Notes under the pieces: generated by a model | What the model saw: only the letters and a program-made list of their open reading frames with translations | Told to the model about the DNA's origin: nothing | The model's database searches: none | Program-made: the position numbers and the translations under genes | Source: Minutocellus sp. GHC0000111 | Taxonomy: Eukaryota | Direction: 5' to 3' | Assembly: GCA_977018835.1 (NCBI GenBank) | Contig: OZ361261.1 | Span: 434,001 to 498,000 of the forward strand | DNA length: 64,000 bases | In this document: positions 1,879 through 57,684 of the stretch, in pieces | Layout of the letters: every line of letters begins with the position of its first letter | How positions within the stretch are numbered: position 1 is the first letter of the stretch

Positions 1879-2657
1879 TCACTTCAAAGGACGGTGGTGG
1901 CGCAGATTCTTCTTTTTGATAGCCATCACTTTACCAGTCTCTTTACCATCACGCAGGAGATGGACTGCAAGCCGATCGGGTGAAGCTGCTTTTCCTTCAA
2001 TTCGCACCCAATGATTGTTGAGATGAGCCGCTTTCTTCAAATTCTGCAAGATAGCCATATCGCCCTCCTGGAATCGGCCATACCGTTTGCAGTGATCGCG
2101 ATGTCCGTCCTCCCAAGCCTTGGCCTGACACTCATCATTGCAATAGAAGCAAGGCGACACTGTTTGCACTTGAGAAGACTCACCAAATCGTCAGATCCTT
2201 TGCCACAGCCATCGCAGAAAACGCCACCGACGGAGTGTGCATGAGGAGTGAAGCATCGATCATCGGCAACTAGGGTCGGAACAAGACTGCAATGGATATT
2301 ATGGAAAGTTTCCTCACAGCACGACACTCCCAGCATCCCTCCAAAGCGATCGAGATGTTCGTGAAGGATTCCGCGGAAATATAGGTTTGCATCGAATTGG
2401 AAATGCTGCCCATCGACATTTCGAAGACTGACACTCGGCGGCCACTCCTCGTCACTCGAGTTGGACGCATACTTGTAAGCGCACCTCAAATAGTTGGCCA
2501 CTGCTGTTGTGCACGATAATGGAGACTTCTTGTTGCAAAGAAAAACAGCCCGAAGAAGCATTGCAGTTGCGCGCATTGCCATCGTCTCCTCTTCATTCGC
2601 AGCTATCGCCTTCACCAAGGTCTTGACCTCATCGTTGAGCCATAAATCAGCATACAC
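1879..2657 (-). pseudogene. MYND zinc-finger protein, 5'-truncated and frameshifted
   Basis: CDGCGK..CKQCRLA in one frame continues as FYCNDECQ..W..H..HC in another (1-nt loss near 2146). It aligns by eye with the paralogue at 22130-23485 from about aa 205 onward, including the C-terminal NLRHHRP. There is no ATG, and an in-frame stop lies just upstream. Confidence 0.8.
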
Positions 2658-3246
2658 GGTCTATGCCGGTCCTAAGCAGGACACCTCCAAGGGTGCTGGT
2701 CGGAGTTGGAAATCGTTCTTCCACGCAGAAAGTAAAGAAGAGTGTGAGGCCAAGATGAAAGCTGGTGGGTGGGAATGGGAGTGGGGCGTCGGAGCAGATG
2801 GATCCAGTATGCCGGATGACTTTCTCAAGGCCAAGACGCCGGTCCTTGAGGTAGTCAAGATTGCTCCTGGTACCAACAAGAAGTGCTTCTTTAATCAGCT
2901 GATCGCAACGACGGCAAATGCATTGGAGTTTTCCAAGGTTGGCGTGAATGGTGGTGGGTTCGACCCCTCGACAGATATTCCTACGCAGGCCGGTATAGAC
3001 GCCTGCGTTTGTTTCGCTGATGGAACGTCTATCCCACTGGAAATATTGCTCGATGCCAAGAAAATGTGTGAAGATATTGCCATCGATGTACAGTGGCAGA
3101 AGGGTGACGTGGCTTTAGTTTGCAACTATCTAATGATGCATGCCCGTCGTCCATGGAAGGGAGAGGCCGGTACTCGTCAAGTTGTTGCTAGCTTGGTAGA
3201 GGAACCGAACTGCACCAGCTTTGGCAAGTCGTTGGTTGCGCTGTGA
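2652..3246 (+). pseudogene. TauD/clavaminate-synthase-like 2OG-Fe dioxygenase, C-terminal half only
   Basis: Contains GRSWKSFF, FFNQL, FADG and WQKGDVALVCNYLMMHARRPW. The N-terminal HxD/E half is absent, and the first ~50 codons of ORF 2494..3246 are antisense MYND sequence. Confidence 0.75.
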
Positions 3247-3367
3247 GGAATATTAGACTGCAATAAACCGTACCTAAGGTACACGGTCAATTACCTACTC
3301 GAAAATGGAAAAGAGTCAAGATCTAGAATCCAAGATAGTTCGTAGCCGCACAAACGAAATTGTACGG

Positions 3368-4672
3368 CTACCTTTTCTTGTGCTTCTTCCCACCTTTTTT
3401 GCGCTTTGGCCATGGGCACTGCACCTCCAGATATATCAGTGTCTCGAGAGATGAAAGATAATCAATATCCTGACCTTCAAGAACAAACTCGACAGACACT
3501 TCTCCACTTTTGGCGTCGAGCTCGAGACGAAGTCGCAATGAGTGATTGTGTACCACAGCACACTCATTGTAACCATCATAGTAAACATTATTCTCGTCGG
3601 TAACAAGTCTAGTCGTTGGGACACAAGGTGAATGCGAACATGATTCAAAACATATGTTTCCATCACTGTCGAAGAAAGTACTTTCGGCGTCAATTTGCAC
3701 TCGAGCCAACTCGACCATAGCCATGTCGGAAACCTTGGTAACTAGAACACGCGCAGTCATGTTCTTGAGCTGGTCTGTATTGAACGGATCATCACCAAGA
3801 CGCTTGCTAATCTCTGGATCTAGGTCTCCTTTGACAACGCCACGATGAGCATCAAACTCAAAGTCTTGATTCCAAAGCTTTGGTGTGAGCAGCCCTCTTC
3901 CCGAAGTAGCAAAGAGGAACTCATCTCCACTGCGGAACTCCACCGTGAAGATGTAGTCGGTCAGCTGCGTACGCGGCTGATACGGTGCCGGATTTCTCAT
4001 TTTGTTAGAGGCACCCCAGTGGGCCTGAAGAAGGCCCTTCCAAGAGAAACCGCTGACGCTGACGCTGATGCCGACGCCTTGCGAAGTAGTTCCAGTAGGG
4101 GAATCCACAAGGGCCTCGGCAACGGACGCGATTGTCGGATTCCCCCCCAGCACCATGTCGCGTCAGAGGGATGGCTTTTTGGAGGTTACATCGGGATCAT
4201 CGTTGCCCTCCATGACAACCCTGCGCCACGACTTGCACGTCCGTTCCATCCCGGCCAGACTCCGAGTGTCGGTCTGCAGCTTGCCGATTCGACGGACGAG
4301 ATCGGGAGGGAGAGCAGACCAGCCAGTTGTAACAATTTTCTCCCTGGTAGGAGCCTTACCACCGCCACTACCTTCACAACCTTGTGTGCCACCGACCTGT
4401 AGCTCATCCACCTTTCTCTTGGCCCCTGCCGTCTCATTACCAGACGCCGAGGATTCCGACGACAACGAAGACGGTTCAGCACTGACACTCGACCGACCAC
4501 CAGCTCTCCCACTACTACTACCGCTACCGCTACTACCCACAGCCGCGCCGCGAACAAACTTGCGCATGTCCTCCCTCGAAACACGGAGCTCGCCACACAT
4601 CTGGCAGCGGCTTCCTGGATGCTGGTGCCGATACGTGCAGATGCGGCAGTCCCAGCCGAACTTGCTCGTCAT
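3368..4672 (-). pseudogene. RanBP2-type zinc finger plus F-box protein with an in-frame TGA
   Basis: Contains WDCRICTY..CQMCG and the F-box-like WSALPPDLVRRI..TCKSWRR. ORFs 4163..4717 and 3368..4156 share one frame and are split by TGA at 4163-4165 (PSL*RDM, probably TGG->TGA). Confidence 0.7.
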
Positions 4673-7445: not shown

Positions 7446-9122
7446 CTACTTCTTCACAGACACACCGACTTGGAAACCATCCTTCATCGACCTGACCATG
7501 GTCCACTTGTACTCTCCCGAATGCCCCAAAGAATCCTCAAAATCGAATTTTGGAAGCAAGTATGCCAGCGTAAGCTTCATAGTGCTCAGTGCCAGCGGTT
7601 TGCCGAGACAAGTCCTAGGACCCGCGTTGAAGACAGGGTACTTGTACATCGATGGCTCCTTGGCATTGAGAAATCGTGCTGGTTTGAATTCCAAAGCATC
7701 TTCTCCCCAGATATTTTTGTCCCGGCCCATTGCCAATGGCAGCCAGGCAACTGCAGCGCCAGCTGGGATAAATGTGCCGTCTGGCAGGACATCATCGCAA
7801 ACGGCATACTTGTGGTCATTTGGAACAGACGGGTGCAAACGCAATATCTCCATAACGACTGCATGTGTGTATCGAAGCTCCGATATCTTATCGAAGGAGT
7901 AATCTGGGTCCTCGTTTCCACAGACCTTGGCAACTTCTTGGGTGATGTTTTGGACTATATCTGGGCGCTTGGTAAGCTCATAGAACCCCCAAGAAAGAGC
8001 GCAAGCTGTGGTATCTCGCCCGGCTATCATTATATTCATCACCACAGACTGAAGCTCATCGTCACGCAAGGGTTGGCCCACTTTCTTGGCATGGTCGAGG
8101 AATCGGCTCAGTAGATCAGGGCCGAGTTTATCGCCGTCAGCAACGGATCTTCGGCGAGAATTGATGATTTCCATAGCCTCCTCGAATAGAATTTGTTTCA
8201 ACTGAGCGATTCGTTTTTCTCGTGAACCAATCTGGAATAGCCGTTTCAGCTCATAGAGTGGGTCGAGAATGCGTTCCTGGAATGTAGCAAGCAATTTAAT
8301 GGAAGATTTGAACGAGTGTTGGTAAAAAATAGTGAGAAATACATTTGACAAAAAAATAGCATTCGTTCAAGCACCGCTCTAGCTGCATCTCATAAAAAAA
8401 GAAGAGGCAAAGCGATGCTGCCCATCCGCCTTGAAGGAGTTCATCTCGCAGCCAAACGCAACATAGGATGTAATGTCGAACGTCATTCGAAAAAAGATAT
8501 CCTGCAAGTCGAGGTTCGCAACTTCATCGGGCGACGATGCGATGCGATTCTGCATAAGCTCCGCTACTTCATCCAGCTTCGCCTTGCTAACTTTCGAGGT
8601 CTGTCTCAAGAGATTGCGGCTGAAGATGTTGCTCATGACCTTGCGATGAACTCGCCACAGGTTGCCGTCGGTGGCAAAGATGCCCCAACCAAGCAAATCA
8701 CCGTAAAGCGATCGGAATGCCTTGCCCTTTTGGTAGTTCTCGAAATTCTTGGACAGAATATGATGAACTGATTCCTCGTCTACGACAAAGAAGAAAGCAC
8801 CGTTCATACCAGGAACATTTGGCAGACCACCTCCCCATGTACGGCCGTATTTGTGCGAGAATCTCGCCGCTTCTTCGGGCCAATCATCCCATGTCTTGAT
8901 GACATGGGGTAAAATGCCCACCATTGGGAACGGCTTCGAAGCTGGCAGTCGGCGAGGACGAAGACGTCGATACAGATGCAGCAAGACGATGGTGGAAATT
9001 ATCGTTGACAACCCGCAAAAGACAGGCAAAGGATAGTAGGTATCCGCCGCCCGAGGAAAGAAACTCGTGCGAGCATTGGCGTTGGCATTCGGACTGCCAT
9101 CGTCCATAATTGTTGGTGTCAT
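7446..9122 (-). CDS. Cytochrome P450, CYP86/704-clan-like, two exons, junction apparently disrupted
   Basis: Motifs LLGWGIFATDG..W, AGRDTT, EILRLHP and the heme motif FNAGPRTCLG. Intron-like DNA spans about 8278-8374. The frame breaks at the A7 run near 8394-8400, where FDEMQ is expected. Confidence 0.85.
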
Positions 9123-9500
9123 TTTTTGGTGAGCCGATGGCGTGTGGATCGAGAATCGGTCGTGAAAGTAGTCAACAATGCAGGACCGAAGATAAGTTGG
9201 ATTTCGCACCAGTGGACCAACGACTTCCCTGAACTTCGTTGGAACAATGACAGCCACTGTAGTCCAGCACTCAATCCAGGTGCCGAACAAGAGAACCTGC
9301 TTTGGCTAATGAGGTTCTCGAGAACTTTTGTCGTATCTTGAAGGTGTCAAGTGTCAGCTCAGGCCGCGAGAACGTAGCCTACGTACAAGCCGTAGCTCAG
9401 CTCCGTAGACTAGCTCTCCCTAGTAATGAACATTTGGTTCTTTTAGAGTAAAATTATAGGAAGGGGAGTGGCTTACTTTTGATTCCATTCTTCAACAACC

Positions 9501-9965
9501 ATGACGAACCTCCTCGTGATCGATAGAGCTCTCGGCACCATCACCCTCCAACTCCTCGCTGAATCTGCCCCCCAGACCGTATCTCACATAACCGACATTG
9601 GCAACTCCAAGCTCTACGACGGGACGAGTTTTTACCGATCCGATTTTGTCATTCAATTCGGCCTTCACGGCACCGGTCGAACCAGCGGCAAACTCTCGGT
9701 CAACGAGACGGGAAGCACGGGCACCGTCATTTCCAACACTCGTGGAACAGCGTCTGTGGCACACTTTGACGTTCCAGATTGCGGTGGAAGTGAATTGTTC
9801 ATAAATCTAGGAGACAACGCGCATATTGATTCAGCCTACGGGGGGTACTGTGTGTTTGCTCGTATTGACCCAAGTGACGAGGCCAGTTTTCGTGTTACCG
9901 ACGCAATCGCTGCCGAAGTGAAGAGCAAGGGAAGCGTTGAGATTCGGACTGTGCGGATCCAATAA
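9501..9965 (+). CDS. Cyclophilin-like peptidyl-prolyl isomerase
   Basis: Motifs LYDGTSFYRSDFVIQFG, NTRGT, SELFINLGDNAHID and YCVFA. Confidence 0.85.
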   Translation: MTNLLVIDRALGTITLQLLAESAPQTVSHITDIGNSKLYDGTSFYRSDFVIQFGLHGTGRTSGKLSVNETGSTGTVISNTRGTASVAHFDVPDCGGSELFINLGDNAHIDSAYGGYCVFARIDPSDEASFRVTDAIAAEVKSKGSVEIRTVRIQ

Positions 9966-9971
9966 AGAAAG

Positions 9972-11240
9972 ATGAAGCTCCCACAGATCATATCCTCTCT
10001 CCCGGCAGCAGGAGCGCCATCAGCTGCGGTTGCATCATCGGCACCGCTGGTTGCTCCTGCTTCACCGCACCGGCCTCATCTTGTGTTGCATTTCGACATT
10101 AACGAAACCATATTGGTCGGAGATGAGGCCGGTGGAGATACCCGGGAGGACTGTCTCAACAAGATGATTTGCAAATCGGCGTTTGTGCTGATGGATGACG
10201 ATCAAGAAGTGGAGAGCGATGAGAAGCAGCCAGGCATGAGTCGGCGTGCATTGGGTCATACCAAAAAGCTAACGCCCACCCGGTGGTGGGATGGATCACC
10301 AATATGGAGAGAGGATGGCGATTCCAGTGGCGATGTTCCGGCGCCACTGTACACAGGATGGGAGTGGCCACCCAATGCGTGTCCATACTATCGCACCTCA
10401 TTCAAGAAACGAGCGAAGGACTTTACACTGAATGATGGCAAGGCATATCGTCCTCTTTACCACGAATTGGAAAAGCGCATTGCCTTTTTGCCGGAGGATG
10501 TCAAGGCTGCCGATGGACATAAGTATCCACACGCATTGCACCACATGCTGCCAGCCTTTTTCCACACCCTGCATGAATTGAAACGGTCGGAGCGGTCCTT
10601 TGGTCTGGTATTAAGTACATTTGGGACTGACTTGCCAGATATTGCCGAGGCGCTGAATGTCTTCGCGCGAGGAGAACACCCGCTTTATCCAGATTTTCGA
10701 GACGAAAATTTGATTCTCACACCTGAACGCATGTTCAAAGGGAGATGGAAAGAGGGGAATGGCAATGGTATTAAAGATATTGAGTATCAACTACTGAAGT
10801 GGTCCGACAATGATGATAAGGCACCATCTTCTGATGATATCGTTGCATCTGGGGACGCCGAGCTTCTCGATATCCTTGAGCATTGTACAGTTGCTGGTAT
10901 TCAGGATCACTACAGCTACTGGGAAAAGAATGACAATGCGCTGTGGGCAGGTAAGCCTGTGTGGACTCATCGCAAGACTTCAGCCTCGGCGTCTGGGGAA
11001 CACTCGCACGGCTGCCACCATGTCTTCTTCGACGACAACATACACAATGATCCATCAGACAGTATTGCTGCTGTGAGAGTCGAGAACGAAGGAGGAGTCT
11101 ACAGGTCACTGTCTGGTGAGGAAATTCTAGAAGTACAAGGCTTGCATCTCGTGAAGGTTCCCACTGTTGCGCCCGTTCTTGACCAGGATTGGTTCTTGAA
11201 TCGAATACGGGAGGCTGAGGAGAGGTTGGCTAAGAAGTAA
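9972..11240 (+). CDS. Conserved hypothetical protein with HAD-like motifs
   Basis: 422-aa ORF containing LVLHFDINETIL, TFGTD and HVFFDDNI. Confidence 0.7.
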   Translation: MKLPQIISSLPAAGAPSAAVASSAPLVAPASPHRPHLVLHFDINETILVGDEAGGDTREDCLNKMICKSAFVLMDDDQEVESDEKQPGMSRRALGHTKKLTPTRWWDGSPIWREDGDSSGDVPAPLYTGWEWPPNACPYYRTSFKKRAKDFTLNDGKAYRPLYHELEKRIAFLPEDVKAADGHKYPHALHHMLPAFFHTLHELKRSERSFGLVLSTFGTDLPDIAEALNVFARGEHPLYPDFRDENLILTPERMFKGRWKEGNGNGIKDIEYQLLKWSDNDDKAPSSDDIVASGDAELLDILEHCTVAGIQDHYSYWEKNDNALWAGKPVWTHRKTSASASGEHSHGCHHVFFDDNIHNDPSDSIAAVRVENEGGVYRSLSGEEILEVQGLHLVKVPTVAPVLDQDWFLNRIREAEERLAKK

Positions 11241-11349
11241 ATTGATTTCTTTAAAGTTATTTGTATGCGAGATGAAGAAATCTTGGCCCGTTCTCCTCCA
11301 ATACACCAAGGCAAGCATCCGCAGCATCCAGAACACCAATGCGATGATA

Positions 11350-12037
11350 AAGGGTTCTGCTTCGACGGAAAGGTTGAAAGGCCAGTATCTTATCTCTCCT
11401 CGCCGTCGGTGAAGTTGAAGGTCACCTTCTGCTACCTACGCTGGAAACAGAATAAAACTCACTGTCTTGTGCTAGTAATAAAATCACGCACACTCAACCT
11501 CAGAAAACCACCGACATACCAACCGATAGAGCACTCTGAGAGGGTTCTCCTGATGTATTTTGAGCCGATGCAATCGAGTTGGTGATAGCAATTAGTTGCC
11601 TTGAACATGACCCTTTTTCGCTAACTTCGCCTGCGTGAAAAATGGCCACGTCACGGAGAAAGCGAACATAAAATTTATCAGGTTGGAGAAAATTTTATGT
11701 TTCAGAAAATTGGCGAGAAAAAAAGATACTAACAACCGCCTAGTAAAAGAGAAAAGGTTAATTGCCCCAACAACCAAGGCAGATAGAGCAATTCTGGAAA
11801 AAAAACTTTTACTATGAATTGTTTTCTTGAGGAACAGTCCTGTCGTTGCGACAAAAGAAAAAAATCGTTTCTTTGCCGATTTCGAAAAAATACCCCCCCA
11901 AAAAGACCGCTTTCCGGCCGTTTCCAGACTTTGTCGCAACCACCAATCGAAAGAACGCATAAATTTACCTGGGGTAACTCTGTTCGACTTGTGCCGTATC
12001 TCTATCCGTTCGGGGGGCAAAGAGGGTGTCCCACCTC
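11350..12037. mobile_element. Probable DNA-transposon end remnant (Sola-like GAGG terminus at 12037)
   Basis: A-tract-rich noncoding stretch ending TATCTCTAT..GAGGGTGTCCCACCTC, which resembles the end TATCTCTAT..GATGGGTGCCCCCTC at 50276-50305. The left boundary is approximate and no partner TIR was found. Confidence 0.4.
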
Positions 12038-12065
12038 GTCAGTTTCATTCTCGTTCCAGCGTGGT

Positions 12066-13787
12066 ATGGCAAAGCCAAAAGCCAAGCAAACTAAAACGCT
12101 CAAGAGGCGAGGCTCAAGCCCAGATAGAGGAAGGCAGGAGGCGGGCCTATCTCGCTGGCTGCGCAAATGTCCAAACATGATGTATATCGGCTTCATTTCT
12201 CTGCTCTTATTATTCTGCGTTCGCTTGACCTGGGTCGCAGGAATGACCGCTGAGGAGGGGTGGGCACATGCAGAGAAAGTGCTTCGCGAACACATAAGCC
12301 CTCCTACTTTCCCAACCGATGCCGATCGGAGCATACCGGACTTTGGTGCCGTAGGTGATGGCAAGACAGACTGTACCAAAGCGTTTCGGGATGCTATTGC
12401 CCTTTGCAGCTCATCTGGCGGGGGAAGAGTTGTGGTGCCGCCGGGTGGTGTCTACTTGACTGGACCCATTGTGCTGAAATCGAACGTAAATTTGCACGTG
12501 CCAGAGTCGGCCACAATACGCTTCAAACAAGATCCGAAGGCATATCTTCCACTCGTGAGAAGTCGGTGGGAGGGCGTGGAGCTAATGAATTATTCTCCAT
12601 TAATTTATGCCTACAAGGAAGAGAACGTTGCCATCACCGGCGATGGCACTCTCGATGGCAACGCGAATGCCACCGCATGGTGGCCCTGGAAGTACGGACC
12701 GCAAGATGCTGGACGTGATCGACTGTTCCAAATGGCCGAAGATGATGTTCCTGTACAGAAGCGATTATTTGGTGAGGGATACTACCTACGGCCAAACTTT
12801 ATCGAGCCATTCAAATGTCAGAACGTTTTGATTGAGGGGATCAAGATTGTAAATTCGCCGATGTGGGTCATCCATCCAACATTTTGCAATAATGTCATCG
12901 TGAGATCTGTAAATGTGGACAGTCATGGACCAAATAATGATGGGTGCGATCCGGACTCATGCAAAGATGTATTGATTGAAAATAGCGTTTTCAATACAGG
13001 AGATGACTGTGTGGCTGTAAAGAGCGGTCGAGGTGATGATGGACGGCGTGTCAACATACCTTCGGTGAATGTAATTATGCGCAATTGTACAATGAAGGAC
13101 GGTCACGGAGGACTGGTGGCAGGATCTGAGATTGCTGCAGGTGTTCGAAACTTGTATGCCGAAGATTGCAATTGGGACTCGCCTTATCTAAGGTATGGTT
13201 TGAGAATCAAATCTAACCCCTTGTTTGGAGGGCAAGCGGAGAACGTATTTGTGCGCAACGTTCAAATGAAGCAGGTAGAGAGAGCCGCCATTCGGTTGAA
13301 CTTTCATTATGAATGGGTTGAAGAGGGCCCTCATATGCCATCGGCCAGCAATATATTTGTAGAAAATGTAACATCGGAAAGAACGCAGTACGCTCTACAG
13401 CTGGAAGGTCTGAGCGATGCTTTGGCCAAGGATATTTCGATAACCAACAGCACATTCCACAACGTGCAACGGCAAAACGTTATCGACTTCATCGACGGAC
13501 TGGAGCTAGAAGACGTCGACATTCAATATGTCCCTTATCGTCCAAGTGGTCAGGTGGTTCTCTTTGGTTTTGTAATATTGCTATGTGGAGCTGCATGTTT
13601 TGTCGAGAAATATGTGCATCGACCAGTTCTTATAAAGACACCGTTGGGCGTGGTGGATTTATCCAAGCAAATAACATTTGTGCAAAAATTGTTTGGGAGT
13701 AATGGTTTTATTGGGTCCTCTTTACAATCAACTGGTATCGAGATGCCACCAAAAGAAGAAGGTGAAGAAGAACGGTTAGTGCCATGA
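12066..13787 (+). CDS. GH28 polygalacturonase-family glycoside hydrolase, membrane anchored
   Basis: All four GH28 motifs are present (NNDG, GDD, GHG, RIK), plus FGAVGDG and RWEGVELMNYSPLIYA. Hydrophobic segments lie at both ends. No intron. Confidence 0.9.
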   Translation: MAKPKAKQTKTLKRRGSSPDRGRQEAGLSRWLRKCPNMMYIGFISLLLLFCVRLTWVAGMTAEEGWAHAEKVLREHISPPTFPTDADRSIPDFGAVGDGKTDCTKAFRDAIALCSSSGGGRVVVPPGGVYLTGPIVLKSNVNLHVPESATIRFKQDPKAYLPLVRSRWEGVELMNYSPLIYAYKEENVAITGDGTLDGNANATAWWPWKYGPQDAGRDRLFQMAEDDVPVQKRLFGEGYYLRPNFIEPFKCQNVLIEGIKIVNSPMWVIHPTFCNNVIVRSVNVDSHGPNNDGCDPDSCKDVLIENSVFNTGDDCVAVKSGRGDDGRRVNIPSVNVIMRNCTMKDGHGGLVAGSEIAAGVRNLYAEDCNWDSPYLRYGLRIKSNPLFGGQAENVFVRNVQMKQVERAAIRLNFHYEWVEEGPHMPSASNIFVENVTSERTQYALQLEGLSDALAKDISITNSTFHNVQRQNVIDFIDGLELEDVDIQYVPYRPSGQVVLFGFVILLCGAACFVEKYVHRPVLIKTPLGVVDLSKQITFVQKLFGSNGFIGSSLQSTGIEMPPKEEGEEERLVP

Positions 13788-13841
13788 TGATCAATGTGGA
13801 TTAATAGAAAAATATTGTGTAGCTAGCGAGAAATATTATAT

Positions 13842-15542
13842 CTATTTTGGGCACTCGTAACCATCCACCGGATATGTTGGTGGGTAGCACTTGCAGCACG
13901 TTTCCTTGATCCGACGGTATCCTTTCGGGTGGCTGACGTCCAGTAAAGATTCTTGCTGGTCGAACATTTCAACCACATAATCGTATAGCTGCAGGTCATA
14001 ATTATTCTTTGCAGCAAGTAGCTCCCATCCTTCAGTGCCCTTTGCGGGATGGGCTTTCTTCGTTGCATTAACGTTGCGATTCGCTCCTCCGCCTTTGGAA
14101 AGAAGTTCTGCTCGGCACTTTTCTTGGTTGTGAGGGTTGACTCTGTACAACCACCGAAAGAAACGCTCAAAACGGTCCATGCTCTCTTCCATTTTGTCGG
14201 TTAGGCCCACAAAGAACTTCCGCCTCAACACCTCTTTGGCCAAAGCAAGGTCGTCTTCGGACAATGCGTCGATTGGATTGTTTGCCAACTGTCTGGTCAT
14301 CCAATTCTCTTCGGCCATAGTTGACCTTGCGTATTCCTCAATTGTCCAGTTCTGTAACTCGGGGTGATATGTCTCCTCCCAAGAGGCAGTTTGGATGTAG
14401 CAAATCTCGGAAATCGCTCTCTCGATTGGATGTCGAAAGACACCGAAGAATCTCAGCATGTGCGACGTTGAACCCAAAGCATCGGATTCGTGGACAAAAT
14501 TTGATACGATAATTTCTGCCATGCCTGATGAAGGGAAACCGATATCCTTCGCATGCTGAATGCCTTCGACGGTATGAGTGTCCACGTTCACGAACATGCT
14601 CCCGCCAGGTCGGACAATCTGTAAGATTTCGTCATTTTCATGCCCATCGAGTGTGCCAATATTGGACGCTGTGATGAGACGGTGACATGATCCAGCAACA
14701 TCCTTGATTGTTGAACCGCCGCTCTTTGGCACGTGCCAGAATGTTGGCACATCCGATTTATGGTAAGGTTCCGACGTATCTTTGAAATGCGCCATACCAA
14801 AAATGGGAGGGGCTTCAGTATCGTTGGGATCTTGTTCTGGCGAAAGAAGATCGGGGTCGTCTGGTATGATTTGTATTTGGGCATTCCCTGCAGTGCCCGA
14901 TTCGTTTGTTTTGCCATCAGCATTTGACTCGGCATCACCGCTATCGGCAGCACCAGAGGCTGCGGCATCGGACGGTAAACGTAGATGCAGCTTCTGAAAG
15001 CCAGAATTTTGTCGGTTCTTCTTGTTCATTTTCTCTTTCTTTCCGCCTGCATGAACTCGTGGTCTCTCGTTCTCGTTGTACTGTGCGCGTTGAACGACGT
15101 GGTGTCCTTCTTGAACAATTGTTTCGACCCTTCTCCGCACCAAGCCCGGCATTCCAGGAAATTTTATTCTCATTCGCCTTCTTCGGGGGATGACTAAAAT
15201 TAGCAAAAGTACCGAAGCTGCAACGACCAGCGCTTTCTTTTCCCGTCGTCTCTTCCACCAAGGCAACTGCGACTCATCCGAAATGTTTGGGCGCCGGGCA
15301 TGTATCTTGCTATCTATTTCGTCGTATTTCCCACTGGTATCGCGTTGCGTCCGAGGCAAATAGAGACTCTCTCTGTCTTCGCTGTCGTGATATCGAGAAA
15401 CGAGCCGATCCGCGTACGAGCCTTCGGATGATCCGGTCCCAGAGCCCCGGTAGCTATCATTGGAAGAGCTTTTGCGTTTATATTGTGGCTTGTACCTGTC
15501 ACGGCCGCCGCCGCTGTCCGGGTGTTGGTACCGGCTCGCCAT
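13842..15542 (-). CDS. Golgi-type sulfotransferase-like protein
   Basis: Type II TM segment, PAPS-binding motifs FWHVPKSGGSTIK and FRHPIERAIS, then ENWMTR and N.YDLQLY. Confidence 0.85.
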   Translation of the reverse strand: MASRYQHPDSGGGRDRYKPQYKRKSSSNDSYRGSGTGSSEGSYADRLVSRYHDSEDRESLYLPRTQRDTSGKYDEIDSKIHARRPNISDESQLPWWKRRREKKALVVAASVLLLILVIPRRRRMRIKFPGMPGLVRRRVETIVQEGHHVVQRAQYNENERPRVHAGGKKEKMNKKNRQNSGFQKLHLRLPSDAAASGAADSGDAESNADGKTNESGTAGNAQIQIIPDDPDLLSPEQDPNDTEAPPIFGMAHFKDTSEPYHKSDVPTFWHVPKSGGSTIKDVAGSCHRLITASNIGTLDGHENDEILQIVRPGGSMFVNVDTHTVEGIQHAKDIGFPSSGMAEIIVSNFVHESDALGSTSHMLRFFGVFRHPIERAISEICYIQTASWEETYHPELQNWTIEEYARSTMAEENWMTRQLANNPIDALSEDDLALAKEVLRRKFFVGLTDKMEESMDRFERFFRWLYRVNPHNQEKCRAELLSKGGGANRNVNATKKAHPAKGTEGWELLAAKNNYDLQLYDYVVEMFDQQESLLDVSHPKGYRRIKETCCKCYPPTYPVDGYECPK

Positions 15543-38491: not shown

Positions 38492-38835
38492 TGCTGCCGA
38501 GAGTGTGACGAACAAGGAGCCACCATCGCTCCTGCGAATGGCACGTGTCTTGCTCGAAAAACGACTGGTGGTCAAAAACTGTCGATGTGACGTGTCAAAA
38601 CACATCTTGTGCCGTATCTTTTCCTATCCACTAGCTAGGGCAGATGCTGCCGCCGCTAAGCGATCAACCTGACGACTTTGTCGCTTCGTATCTCGAGCAA
38701 TATTTGGATTCATGCATCAAGCGACGCATGGAGTTCATCGGCAAGACGAGATGAGGCCAAATCCGGTGTCTTTGGGGGGGTTTACGGGCATTTATGTTCC
38801 GTTTGATCAAATAGTGACGTCATCCAAGCTACCTA

Positions 38836-44942: not shown

Positions 44943-44980
44943 GACCAGCCCATCCCAGAATTTTCTGGGACGAGCTGGTC
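44943..44980. repeat. 18-bp-stem inverted repeat followed by a T-rich tract
   Basis: GACCAGCCCATCCCAGAA-TT-TTCTGGGACGAGCTGGTC, with 16 of 18 positions paired. Confidence 0.8.
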
Positions 44981-45180
44981 GTTCTTTATTTTTATTCAGA
45001 GGAGAATGAGACAGAATGATTGGCACATGTAGAGGAGAGAGGGATGAAGCACAGGATGCAAATTGGCACATTGGTACATGTACATGTACATGTGCCGTAC
45101 GAATCAACAATCAACCGCCTTGATGGAAGAATTGGTAAGTGGTACGTGTTAAATATGTGCCCAAATATTTATGTGTACAT

Positions 45181-48100
45181 TCATTGCTCCTCTTCATCCT
45201 CGTCCCCCTCTTCATCTGATGAATCATCAATGGCCAACTCTTCATCATCACCATCTAATCCGGTTTCTTCCTCTTCTCTATCGCTATCCCCGCCCTCATC
45301 ATCATCATAGGTAATAGTGCGATTCATGCACCCTCTTCTCTCATCTCTTCGAGGATTTGAGAATGGGCTTCCTCCCCGAGATACCGAGGATCTAGAGTAA
45401 GCACTTTGTTGCGATGGTCAGGATTCAAGCTCTGTCGATTGAGATTGTTGTCATCAGATATTGGTAGCATTTTGATGTCGCCTGCCAGAACATGGGATAC
45501 ATAAAATGTAGCCCTTGCCCGAGCTGCCAAAGTTTCCTCCGGATGATACCACCAGTATCGCGCTCCGTCTACTCTGTACAGGTAAGTGCCATCGCACATC
45601 ATTTCCCCCGTTTCTTGATCTGCATACGGCAATCCATCCCATCTCACCAAATAGTAGTCATACTCTGGATCGTCATTTACATCTACCGCGCCATACCCAC
45701 CGACCTCAATCAGGCCTGCTTCTCGAGATGAAACCGTTTCAAGGGTATCTTCCTTGAGCTCATCTATTTCATCGGGGTCTGATTTGTTTGTTGTTTGGAC
45801 TGATGTTATTTTCCAATCATTCAATCCCTCAAATATCTTCCAATATTTGCATTCTTTATTCTGCTTGAATCTCGGCTGCTCCTCGTCGCACTGCGGCCTT
45901 GTTTGTTCCGAGTTCCCAAGAGGTGAGCAAATTGTAGTGAGCGCGGATTCCGGTGTATTCTTTGTTGCGGACAGCAAGAGGAGGTGATATTGCTGCAAAT
46001 ACACTTTGGTGCTTGACATCTTCTGACGTTCGAACGTGGTTGTGCCTTTCACTTATTCTCACTTCATCTGCTTCTCGCTTCCGTCTCTTGTTGCCCACAG
46101 TTTTGACACCATCTTTCCTGTCAGGCTGGTCTAGCAGGCGCTGCATTTCCACCGCGAGGCTTTTGTGCTGGCCATCTTGATACAACTGTGGCTCCATCTT
46201 CTGGTCAGCATAAATGGCATCACAGTCTACATCAGGGGTCATTATGTCCCGCATCCGAGCAATGAGATATGCCTTGTTGGCTGCATTGAGGCCATCAACG
46301 TGATCTTTTCCGTGCCCTGGCGCCCCAAGAGCTCTATCGATAGTAATTTTATACTTGACGCTCAACCAAGAGAGAAAGAGTAAGACCACCGCACAACGAT
46401 ACTGCTTGGTGCAGCCGTCAGAGCCATCATAAATAGTAGAACCAATTTTCAACACCCCCGACTGAAGTAAATGATTGATTTGTACCTGCATGTGCTGATT
46501 TGTGCTGTACCTAGGTACGCATTCTGCATCTTGTCATCGGCGAGGTGAGCGTGGAATTGCATGGCTACCTTCTCATCTACACTACCCATCTCCTCGAGAT
46601 GAGCTGTGATTTCATCGTCACTCATTTCTTTCATTATTTCCAAAGCTTCCTTCTTCCAGTGCTCTACCGAGCAACCTTCCATCGACACTGTAGCGTTACC
46701 ACCGAAGTGCATCGACATAATCTCATTGTTGAGAGCCGCAGTGAGTCTCTCTGCGTAGTCTCGGTGGGTTAGCACGTCACCGGGCTTGGACTTCCAAACC
46801 TCCTTCCTCTCATTGCCGGTGTGGGAGTTGGATAAAATAAGAACATGGTGACGATGGTAAGCATATTTTTCGAGCGCTTTCAGGTAGTGTTGTTTGATAA
46901 AGATTCCAATCGGTTCAGATCTAGCCATGAGATATTTTCTTGTAGAAATCTTTCCGGCTTTTGGCTTTGGCACCTTGCTGTCAGGATCGTCTCCGATTCT
47001 TTGCTCGTAAGTTTCAATAAGTTCATCACATTTTGGGCAAGACTTGCTACGTAGAGGTAGCTGCTGCTCTGGATGAGAGCGGCATGAAGTAACACTCTCG
47101 TAAGTGTGAAACTTTATGCGGTCATCGTCGGCAGCCTCACCGGCCTCCTCGGGCATGACTTCGTAGGCAGGGCAATCTGAACATCGTCTCAAGACACAAC
47201 TCCAATGAGGAAATTCAAAGCCTTCGACATTGCCACATTGGATGCAAAGTAAAGCGTCCTTTGGATGTGGGTGTGTCGGACTCCCATCCTCATTCGTCGT
47301 CTTGGCCTTGTAACTTTGGTACCTCTCTTCCGCGGCCTCTCTCTCCGCAGAATTTTCGGCGACCTCACCAAAATTATCAACAGCGTCCTTCATTCTCTTT
47401 ATGCGACGACGACGATAGGCATTCAGAGAAGCCTGGTGCCGTTTCATAATAATGCAATACTCACACCCGCACATTACCTTGTGAGATTCTCGCATAGCGA
47501 CGAAGTTGGGCGGGATGATGGCTCGAAACTTCGTGTCGGATGTTATCTCCCTTCCTCGATCGTCACGAGCCTCCGGTATTTTGAGCGGCCCCTCGTACAT
47601 GCTGTTGTAGAGCTCTCGAATAGAGCACATCATCAACCTCTTTCGCACACGAACCTTCTCTCCGGTGTTGGCATCGCGAACGAGAATAGTGTCTTTTATT
47701 GTTGGAGACTCGACGATTGAGGGATGATTCTTTAGCCACTCTACTACTTTTTTCTGGAGCTCTTTGGACACCTTGCTCCACCCCTTCCTCTTTTTAACAC
47801 GAGAATACATTAGCCCTTCCTCTTTTGCTCCTACTTTGAACTTTGTCTTTCGATCCTTTGATTTCTTTACTCGCCGCTGAACCGTAGCTCTTGACCCTGG
47901 AAGCACCTTCTGGTAGTCAGTTGTTGTAAGCTTTGGAGTGCTCGAGGTAGAGGTAGCGGTAGAGGCAGCATTGGCATTGCATGCCTCAACTATTGCATCG
48001 TACAACACTTGCAGGGCGCTGGACTGATCATCATTTACCCGTCCTTTTGCAGCACCGTCACTCTTGAATAGTTCAGATGCGTGGGAGGTCAAGTTATCGA

Positions 48101-49454
48101 GAATCTGCAGCTTCTTTTCCGTATTATCCGGCACCTTCAGTCCAGAACCGAGAACAATTTTCGCTGCTTGCGGCTTGTTGGCAAATAAACGAAGGGCATA
48201 GGCCTGAACTTGCTCATCGCCAACGCTTTGGACAGCATTCAATATTACATTAGCTGCTCGTTCCTTTGCCTTTCTTATGGCATCGGCGGATGTCCTCGGC
48301 TGATTGTTCCGCTGATTGACATCAAAGGCAGAATAATTTATTGTTGGAACGAGAAGATTGTTGCCTCTTCTTTTTGCTCTCTCCTCCTCTCTTGATGCAG
48401 CTCCCAATCTCGATACTACAGGCATAGAAGAAATAGTAGATACCATTTCATTGCCTATAGCGGCAGCATCGCCGGTTAGGCTACCACTCTTGATTCCATC
48501 CTTGAGAGCAGTCATCATCAAATGAAAACAACGACCGACTGCATCTGATCCGGCAGCTCCGACCTCGACACCCTTCAGCACGTCCCCAATGCTCTTTCCG
48601 ATGCCATCAATACCGGTAGAAGTGCCGTCCAATGATGCAAGAATGGCTCCTCCGGCCGCTGCTCCATCAGAATCTGCCGCTGCATGTGGACCAGCACGGT
48701 CAGAGCCCACAGCAGACATGTCGGTGCTAGCTGTTGCTGTTGCATTGGAAGTGCCAGGGCCAACCGGATCGCGAGCGCGAGGAGGGCCGTCAGGAAAGAG
48801 TTCCGATGCGGAAGGAAAGGTGCTGGGCGATGGGTTGCTGCACTTGTCGCATGTGCTGGGACAATCGCAAGTACCAAAACAGAACGTGGAGATGGCGGAT
48901 GTGTCTGCCGGATGCGGAGTACCAGTACAGTCGGGAAGGGATGGCGGGATAGCTAACAACGATTGAGACCTTGATATCACCATTGTGTCAGTGGGTGGTA
49001 ATGGCGATGAGCGAAGTGTGCGGCGTCTACCATCCGCTTGTGCGCCGGCGGGGAGTGGTGCTGGTGGATGGAGCGGTCCGGTAGTGCGGCCGGTGCGTTC
49101 GTGGTCCGACGATGAGGATGAGGATGAGGACGCATCGTTCGCGATGCCAGCGGCAGCAGCAGATCGTTTACGCGTCGATGGTCGCATCGATCGGCCTTTG
49201 GTGAGAGTATGGGCGGCGGTGGACGAAGCGGAGGTATCGTCGTTTGACGGGGCGGATGGTTCGGACGACGTCCTTGTCGTCACGTCATTATTTCCGGGAG
49301 GCGAGGATGAAGAATGAGGGTTGGAAGAAGCTGATGCAGCAGGCGTCTTCCGAGCCTGTCTCTGCTGTCGCAGTCTTTCCTTCTTCGCCCTCTCTCTAGA
49401 CTCCTTTCGGGAGTATTTCTTGCCATTGCTGGTCTCTTCCTTTCCGTCGGTCAT
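45181..49454 (-). pseudogene. Sola2-like DDD transposase pseudogene (~1400 codons)
   Basis: Motifs MCGCEYC, C..C..CPAY, HRDYAE..EIMSMHF, SDGCTKQYR and PGHGKDHVDG (three catalytic-type Asp). Lesions are an 8-bp insertion at about 46511-46518, a deletion near 45882 and a frameshift near 45340 before the acidic tail. Confidence 0.7.
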
Positions 49455-50305
49455 GGTCTCGCAAAAATCGAGCGGCCGTGGTTTTTGCTTGATTTTTCCC
49501 CCTTTATTGCTCAGCGAGTTTGGCCACAGGTCTTGCTACGTCCCCTCTCTTCAGATGTCGAAGAATGGGGACATGTCCAGTTTGTTGGCAAAGAAGTTAT
49601 CCAAGTGTCATTTATTTAGGGGGTAAAATGCTGTTGAATAACCTAAATATAAATCAAAACAATCAACCTGTGTTCGAGTACGCGAAAAAGGGCCGCGGAT
49701 GAGAAGTGATACCGTGAGAGCCACAGCCGCCCAATCCACCCAGAAATGCAGAGACACACGCCCAAGATATGTATGAAAATGTTTGTATGGTTGATTGTTG
49801 TGGTTTTTGTTCGTATCCGCCCCCGAATCGGCCGCCAATCGTCATCTTTTTTTTTTGCGTGATTTTCCCCCCTCGATAGCTCAGCCTGTGTGCGGAATTT
49901 TCGAGCCGGCCCTTCGATGTCCCCAACCTTGAATGTGTCTAGAGTGGGGACGTAAGCGAGGCAGGCCGGCTCGATCAAGTCTTTTTGCCATATTTCAGGG
50001 GGAAAAGTTGGTCCGGCAGGAAATTGCGACTTTTCCCGTACTTCGCCGCGTTGGAAACACGGACGACGGAAAGACGAATGTCCAGTTTTTGGGTCGAGCG
50101 GCTCACCTAAAGCTGGACCACGACACATGTAAAAAACACCCGTTACTTAGACTTTAACAACAACATGCTTCTGCTCGCATTCAACTCATCGGGGCACCCG
50201 GGCCATCTGCTGTAGCGCAACTATCCACACGAATCTGACTACGTGCCGGAACAAAGGAAATCTAGCAAAAAAACTATCTCTATTTTCGCAGATGGGTGCC
50301 CCCTC
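45181..50305 (-). mobile_element. Sola-like DNA transposon with one terminus retained
   Basis: Upstream noncoding A-tract region ends (minus strand) 5'-GAGGGGGCACCCATCTGC at 50305, matching the GRG/GAG termini described for Sola elements. A partial inverted copy lies at 50191-50210. No distal TIR was found. Confidence 0.5.
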
Positions 50306-52302: not shown

Positions 52303-54130
52303 ATGGTTGGGCGGGGGATTGTTCAGGCATTCTTATCATCCGGAACAAGTGCAGGCAGCAAAAGCAATAGTGGCAAGACGTGGGGCAGCGCCAAAATCAG
52401 TCCGCTACGACCGCCAATATCGTCATCAAGAGGCCGTAGCGATACCACAAATAATAACGGCAGCGGCAGTGAAAGTTTCCTTTCGGCGAAAGAGAGTGAA
52501 GCGTCAGACCGAGAGCAACAGAAAGAGGAGCCATCGTACAGCGAACGATATCTGAAGAGAGAAGGAGAGTCACCCTCGATGATCTCTCAGGCCCGATTGG
52601 CGGCATCGACAAGCGCACGGCGAACATTGAAAAATGATGTAGCTGCAGTGTCTGCTACATCTTCAACTTGGGGGTGGTCTGGCCGACTGGTTGCCAGGAT
52701 CTTACCCAAGACGTTTAGCGAATATGAGTCTTCCAAGCCCAAGTGGGCGATCGACCCATCCAGTTTGGAGGGTGGGGTCGTTGAGCCTATCACCAAGGTG
52801 CCAGTCATAGAACGGAAGGGATCGGAGGGGGTCTGCAGCGACGTTCTCAGTCTCGCTCCAGCTGATCAAGATGGATGCCAGTATGATTTATCTGGATCGG
52901 GTGGAGAGAGCGACCTGTTGGTGACCTTGGATGTGTTCCTATTCCGTCAGCACATACCAAGCTTTGTCAATATTCAACGGAGTATTCACGGTCCTGGGAG
53001 CGGGAGTGGGAGTGGAAGCAACTCAGATATTAATTCCGAATCGGGGTCAGTGGGTGCGTCGAGTACTTCGCCGTATACTGAAGAAGGCTCCTCACAACTG
53101 CTCTTTATCCACATGAAAGGAGATGCCGACGAAAGTGCGCTAAGAACACTGCGTAGATTAGAGCTATCAACCGAAAAGAAGATGCAAACAGTTACTCATA
53201 GATGCGGTAGAGGCAAGAGACAAAACAAGAAGAGGACCGAAAATATCGCAACTCAGAATGTCACTGCTTCGAGCTCAATGGTTGTCAAGGCCAATGCCAA
53301 AGATGAATGGGACAACGGCGATAAGCTGCAGGAAATAGATTTGTCAGGCTTAACAAATGCCGAGCTCTGGCGAAAGGTAGCTTATGAATACGAACTCCAT
53401 CCCGATCAGAGAAATCGTGTCGGTGTATCGGTTTTGAATCCAGACGTCGAAGACGACTCGCTGGACAGCTACATTCACTTAGATGTAGTGTGTTGCCCGC
53501 CTACAATTCTGCGAGTCCAAATATTCGTAAGTATACTTGTAACTGTGCGTGCTTGTCGATCATGTTCACTGCAATAATTGCTAATTCTCTGCTTCGCACC
53601 CTTCTATGCCCATTTATAGGAAAATTTTGAGGCTCAGGTGTTCGTGGGGGTGCCACAATTATCGCTGGGAGATGGGCGACACGTCCTGGATGCTAGATCA
53701 TGGCTACGTCGGCAATGAAGCCACCGCCGATACAGAAGAGGACCCTCTCTACGTCGAGGAAACATTTGAAGAGGCTCACGAAGATGAAGAATCCCTCGCT
53801 GATGACTCATTTACCGAGCCATTTCATCCCCCTCCGATTGTGCTACCTCCCTCATTTCCCAACCTCGTTTCAGGATGTCCCGACATGCCCGAGTTCACCA
53901 ATTTCGCTGTGGACTTTGTTGAGACTCTCGATTACGTGTTGGCTTCCGAAATATCGGAGCATGATCGGTATGGATTCAGGCCCAAGAAGGCAGCACCAAT
54001 GCCCAACGCTGACGAGATTAGTCGATATGTGGCTATGCCAAATGAATTCATGCCATCGGATCATGTCTCGGTTGTTTGTGATCTCGAATGGACAACCAAT
54101 GAGACGAGCCCAGGAGAGCAAAGACATTAA
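52303..54130 (+). pseudogene. PDE12/CCR4-like EEP phosphodiesterase gene missing most of its catalytic domain
   Basis: Intron at 53527-53619. Exon 2 (ENFEAQVFVGVP) jumps out of frame near 53653 to the C-terminal FTNF..TLDYV..PSDH. The EEP motifs YNIL, LQE and GDFN are absent. Confidence 0.65.
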
Positions 54131-54378
54131 TTGCCTGACGGACATTTCATTCATTTGGATCGATTCGATTCCGACATTAGATGACGACCAAGCTACTGCG
54201 GGAAGAAAACAATTACGCACAAAATCCAAAGAAATCTGCACTTTGCACATGAATAGCGCCATTAATAGTAAAATATCAGTGAAGATCTTATCTCTATTGT
54301 ACTCCGATTTACGTTTTAGCCTACATTATGAATTTGTTTGTGATACAACTGTAGCATTGTGCACATTGTGTCGCCTGA

Positions 54379-57300
54379 TCAGCGATTCCTCAACTTGCGG
54401 TTGCGATAGCACGAGTTGCTAAATTGGCGGACGGTCGAGTTGAGCTCATCCCGAGGGACTTTGCTCGCAAGGCTCTTGAGGAATTGGTCTCGAGGTCCTT
54501 GGGGGGCCGTAGTAAGCGCAGGGTTGATCCACTGCATCAAAAGTTGGGGGCATAATTCGTTAAGTTTGAACAGGACCCCTGCGATCGAACCTCGCTCATT
54601 GTCGAGTCGGTATGCCGGGAGGTCGCCCAGGAGGGCCTGGGCAAGGTTGATAACAATCGGCTGGCCTTCCGCGATAACTGCCTGCTCAACAGCTTGGCGG
54701 ACTGCCTGCTTTTCAGCGCCGGCTGGAGTTGTTGGGGATAAACTCAAGCCGTATGAAATGGTATTCTCGAGGAATGTTAGGATTCCACTGTTGGCATCGC
54801 GATGGTCAAGTTTCATCCCAACGGCTGCACATTGTAGAAGAGAATGTAGCAGCGGGTTGAGCACAAGCGGTTCAGGGCAGTGCGCCATGGTCCTGGCGGC
54901 CAAGAAGAAGAATTCTTCGACAACGTCGGGGTGGGCGGTAAAGTCGGCAGGCGATTTCAGGGCCGCAAAGACAGCTACCGACAAGTCGTTGAACATACTC
55001 ATGAGCATAGGAATAAGGTCAGAATCGCGACCGTACTCCGCAACACAGATACTGGCACAGTAGAGGTAGGGAGATAAGTGTGATTGCGAGAAGTTTCGTA
55101 CAAGTTGCGTTCGAAGGGGCTCAAGCATTGGGCGGTATGCACCGGGACCACAGCCTCGGATCGCATGCTTATGAAGCCGACAAAGCTTTTCGGCGAGATT
55201 GATGTCTCGCGAATGCTTCTGACTAATGGCGTCGAGTAAGGGCCAGAATTGAGACATGATATCTTTTGTAAATTCAGCCCTGGCGGTTTGTTGCGCCACT
55301 GCGGCGGTTTGGTTGGGTTCTGCCGCTCGGGGGGGGTTCCAAGAAACGAACAATTACAGTGAGGCGCTCAATTTCGGCAGTGGCCGACTTCGGACCGGCT
55401 CCGTTATCTGGAGCGGCAAGGGCAGTCAAACGACTTCCAACCGGTTGCACAATGCGGTTGATGAATTCCGTGATTTTGTCAGCACTCATACCCCCCTGGC
55501 GGAGTTGCCGCGATACAGCCTTGCACGCTCCCTCCAGTACCTCCAGCTCATCTTTCAAGTTCAAAACTCCACCTCCAGCTGCACCCGCCTGTTGTAGCAG
55601 CTGTGCTGCAATAATACCATCGTACAGCTCCAACACCGGCTCACCAAGGGACATCTGTCTATTGCAGCTTTCGCAGAGATGTTTGATTGCAACAGCTGCG
55701 GATGAGGCACACTGAGGCACCTGCATCTGCAATCCCTGAGCAAGGTAGGGAAGTAGTGGCTGAAGGAGCTCAATGTGAGCATCGAGCCACAAGGCATATT
55801 GGCCGACGGTAAGATTGGCAGTTTCGCGTAGTTGAGTTACATTGGAGGGCAGCTGAGGAATCATCTTCATAACAAAGGGGACAACGGCATTTTCATCTTC
55901 GGGTATGTATCGAGCAACTGCTCGAATGGCGAACAAGCATGCCTCGATTCCATGCCATTCGGCCAGTTGTCTCTCTCCGGGAAGCGTCGATACTCGATAG
56001 CACTCTTCCTGCAGCTGAGTTCCAAGATTTTGTAGAACAACGTGACCACCAAGAAGCCGGCAGCAATCCTCGACGGTATCTGATACGTAGTACCGATCTC
56101 TGATAATGTCCTCGACGCGATCTTCGGTTAGAGAATCTATGTCTGGCGGATACCGCATGAGAGATGTACAAATGGTAAGCAGCCGAAGCAGCTGGTTGGC
56201 AAAATCGTTTGTTTTGTGGTCACGAAATTCGTATGGCTCGAGATCTTCCAACCAGGAAACGAATCGATACCAAAAATGGAGCGTAATTGATGCGATTTCT
56301 GTGTTTTGCGGGTGATACATTGATGGAAATAGTGAGAGTGAGAACAATTTATGTTGGTATTGAACAAATCAACCAATCTGACAGGGAGGCAACAAAATGA
56401 CCTACCTTTGTCTGGTATTGCGGAACAGTCCAGCACAAGGTCGACCAAAGCCGCCTGATTCAAGTCGCGGTGACACATGATGAGGCTCATGTAGCTCTCC
56501 CCCATCTCAGTGAAGATGCGGCAGTACCCACGAAGCAGATCCTCATCTGCCGATGCCAGGGCGGAACGGAACGGCCCATCCGGTTCCGGCCGGCCCAGTG
56601 CCATGGCCAGTGGGATCACGCCGTGCACCAACCTTTCGTTCTCGGGATAATCGGAAGGGAAAGCTCTTAGTATTTCCACAACTACATCGACAGCAGCCTC
56701 GTAACAGTCTCCCTCGTACCTCGGATCGGCCAATACGTGGAAGGTCCACTCGACGAGGGGACTGCCCTCCAACATTCGGGGATGGAATCGCACATACCGC
56801 ACCCAGGAATGCAGCGTGTGAAGAATATTTTCTGTGATTGTCAAATCCTCCGCGGCCGGACCACGTTCAGCATTCGTCTTGGCCGTTCGCAAAAGAAATG
56901 CCATGAGCATCCCCGATGAATCCTCCAGCCGCCTACCGAACTGATTGCGAAGCATGTCGTCCTCCAGAATGAGCCGATCTGAGCAAGTCTCCTCCGGTAA
57001 CAATTTGAATAACTCAAGCGCTGCCGGCACCAACTCGGGACGGGTTGGGATCATGGTATCGGCATTGACATTGTTGTCGCTTCCACCGCCGCTGAGATTG
57101 ATGCCGAGGACGCCACTCAACACATCCTCAATAACACCGAACCAGCTCATTTGCACCGCAAGGGCCGCACTTGCCATGGCCAATCGGGTAACAAGCGCCC
57201 TATTCCCGCCGCCACTGCTCGTACTGGCACTGGTGAGGTGATTCATCAAGCTATCCCGCAGACTGGGCAAAGAATCCTTGGGGAGCTGAACGACATCCGT

Positions 57301-57684
57301 CCGACATTTCGCATGGAGCGTCTGTGCCGCGAAGAATTGCGACTGTACGGCCGCTGGGTTGTTTGCGCTGCCTCCACTACCGCTGCTTGCGTTGAGGAGC
57401 CGATCGCACACCATCCACGCCACTGCCTGTCGCTGGAAGGAGGTCAGGTATCGGTTGGCCACGTCCCGGCTGGCGGCCAGGCCGCTTGCTGCATCTGCCG
57501 CTGCGTCAGGAGAGCCCGACCGAGAACCTGCCGCCGCAGCGTCGACCGAAAACACTGCCTCGAGGGCCTGGACTACGCGACGACATTCCTCGTCGACGTC
57601 GGTCGAGTGTGGGGGCAAGTCGGCGTTGGTGGCGCTCCCTGCTGGGCCTCCAACGGCGCCGTTGGCTCCACCTCCACCCGTCAT
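54379..57684 (-). CDS. TNPO3: Transportin-SR/MTR10-like importin-beta (apparent +1 frameshift in a C8 run)
   Basis: Motifs ANRYLTSFQ..AW, FFAAQTL, RIFTEMGE, ITLHFWY, EKLCR and HPDVVEEFF. Intron at 56405-56299. The frame switches at the G8 run 55329-55336. Confidence 0.8.

Follow-up and report, generated by a model that had tools for sequence, protein, structure and literature searches.

Gene damage on both haplotypes of a 64-kb diatom region: probable sheltered, reciprocal loss in a clonal diploid

Diploids that have been clonal for a long time are expected to lose genes in a complementary way, each defect being covered by the second allele, yet dense cases are rarely observed. We analysed a 64-kb stretch of the assembly of Minutocellus sp. 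GHC0000111 (contig OZ361261.1, positions 434,001 to 498,000; hereafter the window), which contains an unusual number of broken host genes. A comparable system is the asexual hybrid yeast Pichia sorbitophila. The available part of its description gives 38 pairs of coding sequence (CDS) and pseudogene and 6 pseudogene-pseudogene pairs among 3205, with 82% of the CDS-pseudogene pairs on one subgenome (PMC3284337). Like this yeast, as far as that text describes it, the window is a mosaic of heterozygous and homozygous tracts with CDS/pseudogene allele pairs. Unlike in the yeast, damage reaches at least 13 of 28 genes, affects both copies and lies mostly in tracts of low divergence.

Mitotic asexuals offer a second comparison. 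The Meselson effect and loss of complementation, in the portion of the account at hand, involve independent mutation of the haplotypes and conversion that resets their divergence, as proposed for the window; here, in contrast, gene knock-outs appear at just ~0.4% divergence (PMC7953838). High heterozygosity in parthenogens is found mainly in hybrids, according to the accessible part of a review. Fistulifera solaris (PMC5935921), P. tricornutum (PMC10833087) and Auxenochlorella (PMC12636532) share vegetative diploidy, divergent alleles, loss of heterozygosity and loss-of-function alleles, and the available text of these accounts reports no reciprocal pseudogenisation at this density. The homoeologues of F. 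solaris are described there as 75% alike, unlike the window pair (PMC5935921). Our literature search, with subscription journals and supplements outside its reach, returned no report of reciprocal pseudogenisation in a diatom. Degenerating mating-type chromosomes of anther-smut fungi reportedly combine permanent heterozygosity, transposon build-up and degeneration; in contrast to these, no mating locus is among the Pfam matches in the 64-kb window. A preliminary description of the same DNA had proposed a single degenerating copy; this is corrected here to two, as other genes are damaged on the partner.

Broken genes in the window

The window is eukaryotic DNA with a GC content of ~51%. A transportin-3 search returned diatom sequences at 47-61% and near-identical ones at up to 99% (among 120 of 142 matches listed), and by sequence similarity the DNA is that of a diatom. 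Counting from open reading frames (ORFs) and Pfam matches, we find 28-29 host genes, eight of which are broken and together carry 11 lesions, each called by comparison with a contig allele, with the pattern of the family or with a relative in which the gene is intact. The preliminary description had counted about 8 of 28 damaged genes; all eight were found broken at the positions it named, and the observation is confirmed:

1879..2651, minus strand: MYND-finger gene remnant; 5' half deleted at 2651/2652, -1 frameshift near 2147
2652..3246, plus strand: TauD-family dioxygenase remnant; N-terminal half missing
3368..4672, minus strand: F-box gene; TGA at 4163-4165
7446..9122, minus strand: cytochrome P450; +2 in the T run 8394-8400, and the splice donor before acceptor 8277 may be missing too
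15736..18508, minus strand: sulfotransferase-like gene; frameshifting ~20-codon deletion near 16136-16140 (against P0368/P0369)
39631..41642, plus strand: SLC35B/UAA transporter; 5' end lost, +1 at 40371, TAG at 40513, -7 near 40801 (against P0360)
52303..54130, plus strand: exo/endonuclease-phosphatase (PDE12-like); ~1.1-kb deletion at 53653-53655
54379..57684, minus strand: transportin-3 (TNPO3); +1 in the G8 run 55329-55336 (against P0001), intron 56299-56406

Pfam assigns UAA and Exo_endo_phos to the sixth and seventh genes, which we take to be SLC35B and PDE12-like. The fraction of 8/28 exceeds the hybrid-yeast rate of 44 pseudogene-bearing allele pairs in 3205 (binomial p = 3e-9). In a related diatom (L001), the syntenic block of OTU, exonuclease, TNPO3, NAC and thioredoxin protein has all five genes open.

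Four of the 24 listed runs were compared with the window: X1 and X3, both of organism A and possibly what the assembly was made from; X5, DNA of a sponge metagenome; and X6, a sponge metatranscriptome from 2016. The run data are contigs that keep one allele per bubble, and heterozygosity was read from forks and half depth. The window allele is present or implied in these contigs for seven of the eight genes, and a non-broken allele occurs at the lesion site in six of eight. The preliminary description had held that the nonsense codons and deletions are not typical sequencing errors and that intact copies should exist; the window alleles in run contigs at most sites, and the unbroken alleles at six of eight, bear out both expectations. 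Its suspicion that the homopolymer shifts could be assembly errors did not hold, as the TNPO3 shift occurs in an X1 contig and the P450 shift in an X5 contig.

A single deletion at 2651/2652 fuses the 5'-less MYND and TauD remnants head to head. The TauD remnant is ~180 N-terminal residues short relative to its relatives (alignment A1), and longer alleles, 97-99% identical, exist (e.g. P0258). At the junction, the X1 and X3 contigs abut without overlap, the X5 contig starts at 2652 and one X6 contig stops at 2651, while a second X6 RNA contig continues past 2651 into an open, unbroken MYND frame. We infer a fork with both alleles present in all four runs. An exact pattern search of JGI metagenomes for the junction DNA at TauD gave 0 matches. 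The F-box TGA lies within X1 and X3 contigs, and P0275, from a 121,519-base contig, has W at this position.

For P450, the frame-restoring allele is found in X1, X3 and X6, and the window allele in an X5 contig at a depth of 5.7, compared with ~11-13 alongside. The only in-frame GT donors of its intron, at 8349 and 8313, are both in weak context. An X6 RNA contig also forks at 8380 in this gene (8277-8380 intron), which hints at a third allele.

A mobile element, which ends at 39630, has taken the place of the first 34 codons of SLC35B. The TAG at 40513 is absent from X1 and X6 and makes up about half of the X5 depth (C in 30.4 of 58.8); an unbroken allele is present in an X1 contig. The +1 and -7 shifts of this gene and the sulfotransferase-like deletion at 16136-16140 were not seen among the contig rows listed. 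An X6 RNA contig over SLC35B (39823-40849) is 27 bases shorter than the window, a difference that neither known allele accounts for.

At the PDE12-like deletion, an X1 contig contains 1141 additional bases at 53653, with a mean depth of 100 against 101.6 expected for a heterozygous segment; contig breaks and depth suggest that the deletion allele of the window is present as well. The TNPO3 run is G8 in X1 and G7 in X3 and X5. X6 RNA contigs break across it, with a depth of 3.8 for the intact branch and, by subtraction, ~3.7 remaining for the other. The frameshifted allele appears to be present in spliced X6 RNA, about as deep as the intact allele; contigs cannot give expression levels, but nonsense-mediated decay may be weak here.

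Two general causes were considered and rejected. The TNPO3 and PDE12-like introns are real, as seen from X6 joints, yet the lesions remain, so that spliced transcripts do not restore these frames as the preliminary description had allowed they might. Repeat-induced point mutation is ruled out: there is no TpA excess and no drop in GC, and the organism is a diatom.

The partner haplotype and the divergent block

In this diploid genome the window represents one haplotype, and its partner is an allele ~99.5% identical rather than a distant homeologue. In X1, allele-specific contigs have depths of 55.7 and 57.8 against 112.6, and further half-depth shares of 60/120 and 78.8/158.8 are seen at 12671. 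Forks, or opposite alleles between runs, occur at 2651/2652, 8394-8404, 40513, 53653 and 55329. Coverage, which the preliminary description had named among its checks along with ploidy, is accordingly diploid-like. Of its proposal of a fractionating homeologue or haplotype, the haplotype part stands, with half-depth contigs that differ by ~0.2-0.5%. The separate, redundant homeologue does not: no diverged syntenic subgenome copy was found, and the depth equals two copies, at the likeness of at least 85% to which copies are searchable.

The partner differs by ~0.2-0.5% over most of the window. X1 long contigs differ from it at 41 of 17,300 bases (0.24%, a lower bound), and for six genes of low divergence the partner proteins differ at 23 of 2,382 residues, ~0.4% per non-synonymous site. 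Partner alleles were taken from public-run contigs and protein clusters. Proteins of the window lie on a 761,871-base contig, with near-identical alleles on contigs of 121,519, 431,174 and 3,282,676 bases. The latter agree with X1/X3 variants at 3029, 9526-9623, 52397, 53074 and 53119, and because the residue changes match these variants we treat the long-contig alleles as the partner haplotype. Their spread over three long contigs (2600-61300) may reflect rearrangement, duplication or several assemblies. The 431,174-base contig itself yields two versions of the C-terminal piece of the mitochondrial carrier.

We looked up 16 genes that are intact in the window. Eleven were found, seven of them with an allele on a second long contig; for the other four no long-contig allele is among those listed, which is uninformative. 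Likewise uninformative are the exact look-ups without a match for 13 of 27 window translations (6/7, 1/10 and 6/10), probably a matter of start choice. Of the seven partner alleles, two are whole (cyclophilin and the gene at 9972) and five are damaged, three seriously and two in the tail:

12066..13787, plus strand: GH28 gene; open in the window, partner P0309 ends 19 codons early
13842..15542, minus strand: second sulfotransferase-like gene; open in the window, partner lacking 10 bases at 15353 and shifted in frame near 14120 (P0321)
19081..20196, minus strand: mitochondrial carrier; open in the window, partner frameshift near 19630 (P0331, P0329, P0332; 431,174-base contig)
26131..28671, plus strand: AAA-type membrane protein; window frame open, first ~300 codons of the partner lost through an out-of-frame join (P0344)
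59158..61257, minus strand: thioredoxin-domain membrane protein; window frame open, tail frameshift near 59530 on the partner (P0355; 3,282,676-base contig)

The deletion at 15353 is also present in X1/X3 contigs and matches the late start of the partner protein; for this gene Pfam reports Sulfotransfer_2 only below the cut-off (E 0.014). Loss is thus reciprocal, with eight genes broken in the window and five different ones damaged on the partner. At least 13 of 28 genes have one or more damaged copies, or 11 without the two tail cases.

One segment departs from the low divergence of the region:

9423..12700: divergent block; haplotypes differ by ~10-12% in protein, with cyclophilin and the 9972 gene intact on both

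The two copies of this block are 87.6-89.5% identical, mostly below the identity of either to third-party relatives, and it is likely to be a hybrid relic, judged from one block, two genes and pairwise identities only. P0285/P0287 are at 96% to the window and 92% to the partner, which agrees with separate parents. The hybrid origin raised in the preliminary description is suggested by this block alone.

We compared single-nucleotide polymorphisms (SNPs) between the copies, leaving out non-coding and transposon rows as well as rows 2089 and 8394. In the low-divergence tracts, 14 non-synonymous changes (1 nonsense) stand against 7 synonymous ones, for a neutral expectation of 72-77% (p = 0.45). 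On this small sample the alleles look neutral, as expected under relaxed selection. The divergent block has 6 non-synonymous and 15 synonymous changes (p = 1e-5 against neutral; Fisher p = 0.029 against the low-divergence tracts) and shows the signature expected of past purifying selection. A dN/dS-type comparison was among the checks that the preliminary description had proposed. Since two genes 10-12% divergent remain whole on both copies, while the present lesion rate is ~0.27 per kb at ~0.4% divergence, the divergence of the block likely predates the relaxation and would go back to separate parents.

A possible history and its alternatives

We consider it probable that this diatom is a clonal diploid in which gene loss has been reciprocal, with mostly different genes broken on each copy and every loss sheltered by the other one. 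The lineage is likely hybrid and homogenised by mitotic recombination. In such a history, two diverged parents would have fused, the block at 9.4-12.7 kb (~10% divergent) being left over. Mitotic recombination, which in diatoms is frequent (>4 per 100 divisions in the part of the source available; 10.1101/2020.11.08.373134), would then have made most of the region homozygous and reset its divergence. In a clone, the second allele would mask a recessive knock-out and no meiosis would uncover it, so nonsense, frameshift, deletion and transposon hits could gather near-neutrally on whichever copy was hit first. Later hits would accumulate on the already dead copy, as the four lesions of SLC35B may illustrate. 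Selection would keep the remaining copy where the gene matters, and heterozygosity would become locked in, while dispensable genes could die on both copies, which may be the case for MYND, P450 and TauD. With lesions interleaved on both copies, long homozygous tracts and selfing would be costly. At a mutation rate near 5e-10 per site per division, a divergence of 0.4-0.5% would correspond, very roughly, to a few million divisions.

Diatoms are usually thought to require sex for restoring cell size. A diatom with nearly half of its genes damaged on one copy would make it possible to test directly if asexuality becomes irreversible once complementation is lost. For this organism, gene content would be misreported by a collapsed assembly. 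Forks appear to be shared across studies: the junction and, by our reading, TNPO3 in X6, and the junction, P450 and SLC35B alleles in X5. Two heterozygous lesions thus appear to be present again in runs from two further studies, both of which carry a sponge metagenome label. Sponge symbionts include diatoms, according to the accessible text of PMC2646722, and the diatom of the window may reside in sponges. From the marine RNA runs X9-X12 (0.30-0.43 of words) and runs with smaller shares we draw no habitat claim. A more speculative extension, which we hold only tentatively, is that the diatom, associated with sponges, forms an asexual clone of hybrid origin with a reciprocally eroding diploid genome, about half of its genes functionally single-copy and its haplotypes acting as balanced lethals. 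If true, it would be a eukaryotic counterpart to endosymbiont genome decay, caught early (~0.4% allele divergence), with a bearing on how the genome of a eukaryotic photosymbiont begins to erode.

Several observations weigh against sheltered reciprocal loss as the explanation. The evidence covers one 64-kb window, and X1-X4 may be the assembly's own source. The MYND -1 near 2147 lies inside both X1 and X3 contigs with no gap there, the P450 donor seems to be missing from X1/X3 contigs as well with no further gap, and the protein called for TauD on the partner has only 145 aa. Complementarity is not strict, in that among 7 genes broken in the window between 0 and 3 may lack a working copy altogether (Fisher p = 0.021 to 0.59). 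Apart from the one at 15353, the partner lesions are known from proteins predicted on long contigs, and assembly errors could account for them. X5 has only the non-window allele at 9423-9623, 11226-11311 and 12671, and its genotype may therefore differ. The SNP comparison is small, with 42 coding rows drawn from 40 of 479 and 40 of 111 rows. Heterozygous loss of function is also common in P. tricornutum, with >1,100 cases shared between accession pairs in the part of the account available (PMC10833087).

That last point leads to an explanation we regard as improbable, namely ordinary recessive load in a diploid of normal heterozygosity, in which the window would be an extreme case and the divergent block would have come in by introgression. 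The many loss-of-function alleles of P. tricornutum (31,536 over 17 accessions in the accessible text; PMC10833087) make it worth considering, and against a loss-of-function gene rate of ~15%, our own rough reading of those figures, 8/28 is only a marginal one-haplotype excess (p = 0.049). It sits poorly with at least 13 of 28 genes having a damaged copy, with damage to the conserved TNPO3, SLC35B (four lesions) and mitochondrial carrier, with near-neutral coding SNPs, and with open alleles in relatives. Somewhat better placed, though still unlikely, is decay confined to a non-recombining, permanently heterozygous region (mating-type-like, an inversion or a balanced-lethal supergene) in a diatom that otherwise reproduces sexually; transposons would have accumulated there, and its strata would differ in age. 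Allele identity does change stepwise (88-90%, 96%, 98%, 99%), transposon nests are large, partner alleles on three long contigs suggest rearrangement, and such regions degenerate in fungi. However, both copies decay at just ~0.4% divergence, no sex-related gene is among the Pfam matches in the window, and the strata extend over a few kb, a length closer to that of conversion tracts than of inversions.

The remaining two alternatives we consider very improbable. A homeologue decaying after genome doubling, with a separate intact subgenome elsewhere, could draw on the 10% divergent block and on the existence of allopolyploid diatoms (in the available part of PMC5935921), but the depth equals two copies at 85% likeness or more, and the partner is ~99.5% identical and itself broken. 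Assembly or consensus errors might be suspected from the homopolymer context of several lesions and from the SLC35B +1 and -7 and sulfotransferase changes, which the listed contig rows lack; the occurrence of window alleles, present or implied, in X1, X3, X5 or X6 for seven of eight genes argues strongly the other way.

Mobile elements and neighbouring features

Three repeat-rich segments accompany the damaged genes:

11436..12061: high-copy repeat directly upstream of GH28; the partner has 904 other bases across 11348-12215
36283..39630, minus strand: tyrosine-recombinase-like element; ~790-base direct repeats, 97% alike, the right one displacing the SLC35B start
41790..50300: broken transposon-like nest; 41.3-44.5 kb very high copy, 44.9-49.6 kb ~6x gene depth

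Transposons inserted next to GH28, at SLC35B and at 41.8-50.3 kb are in line with the relaxed selection proposed for the genes. In the recombinase-like element, a 170-aa ORF lies in each ~790-base repeat, together with the 3' end of the recombinase. Atlas neighbours of the recombinase-like ORF are eukaryotic integrase-type clusters with Phage_integrase in 30-86% of members; the ORF itself had no Pfam match under the cut-off, and a PDB search returned nothing useful. Within the nest, the broken element at 41323-44527 reaches a summed contig depth of 15,000-68,000, compared with 100-170 for genes (X1, X3), and likely belongs to a very large, recent transposon family. The segment at 44885-49650 is a broken transposase-like element with a 1028-aa ORF and frameshifted pieces at ~6x gene depth; the run consensus has small indels relative to the window at 45342 and 49513.

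At 23401-23944, an exact tandem duplication of ~270 bases carries the 3' end of an intact MYND paralogue. In L001, two inverted copies of the NAC-alpha gene are located near the syntenic block, at 3528-3962 and 7202-7774.

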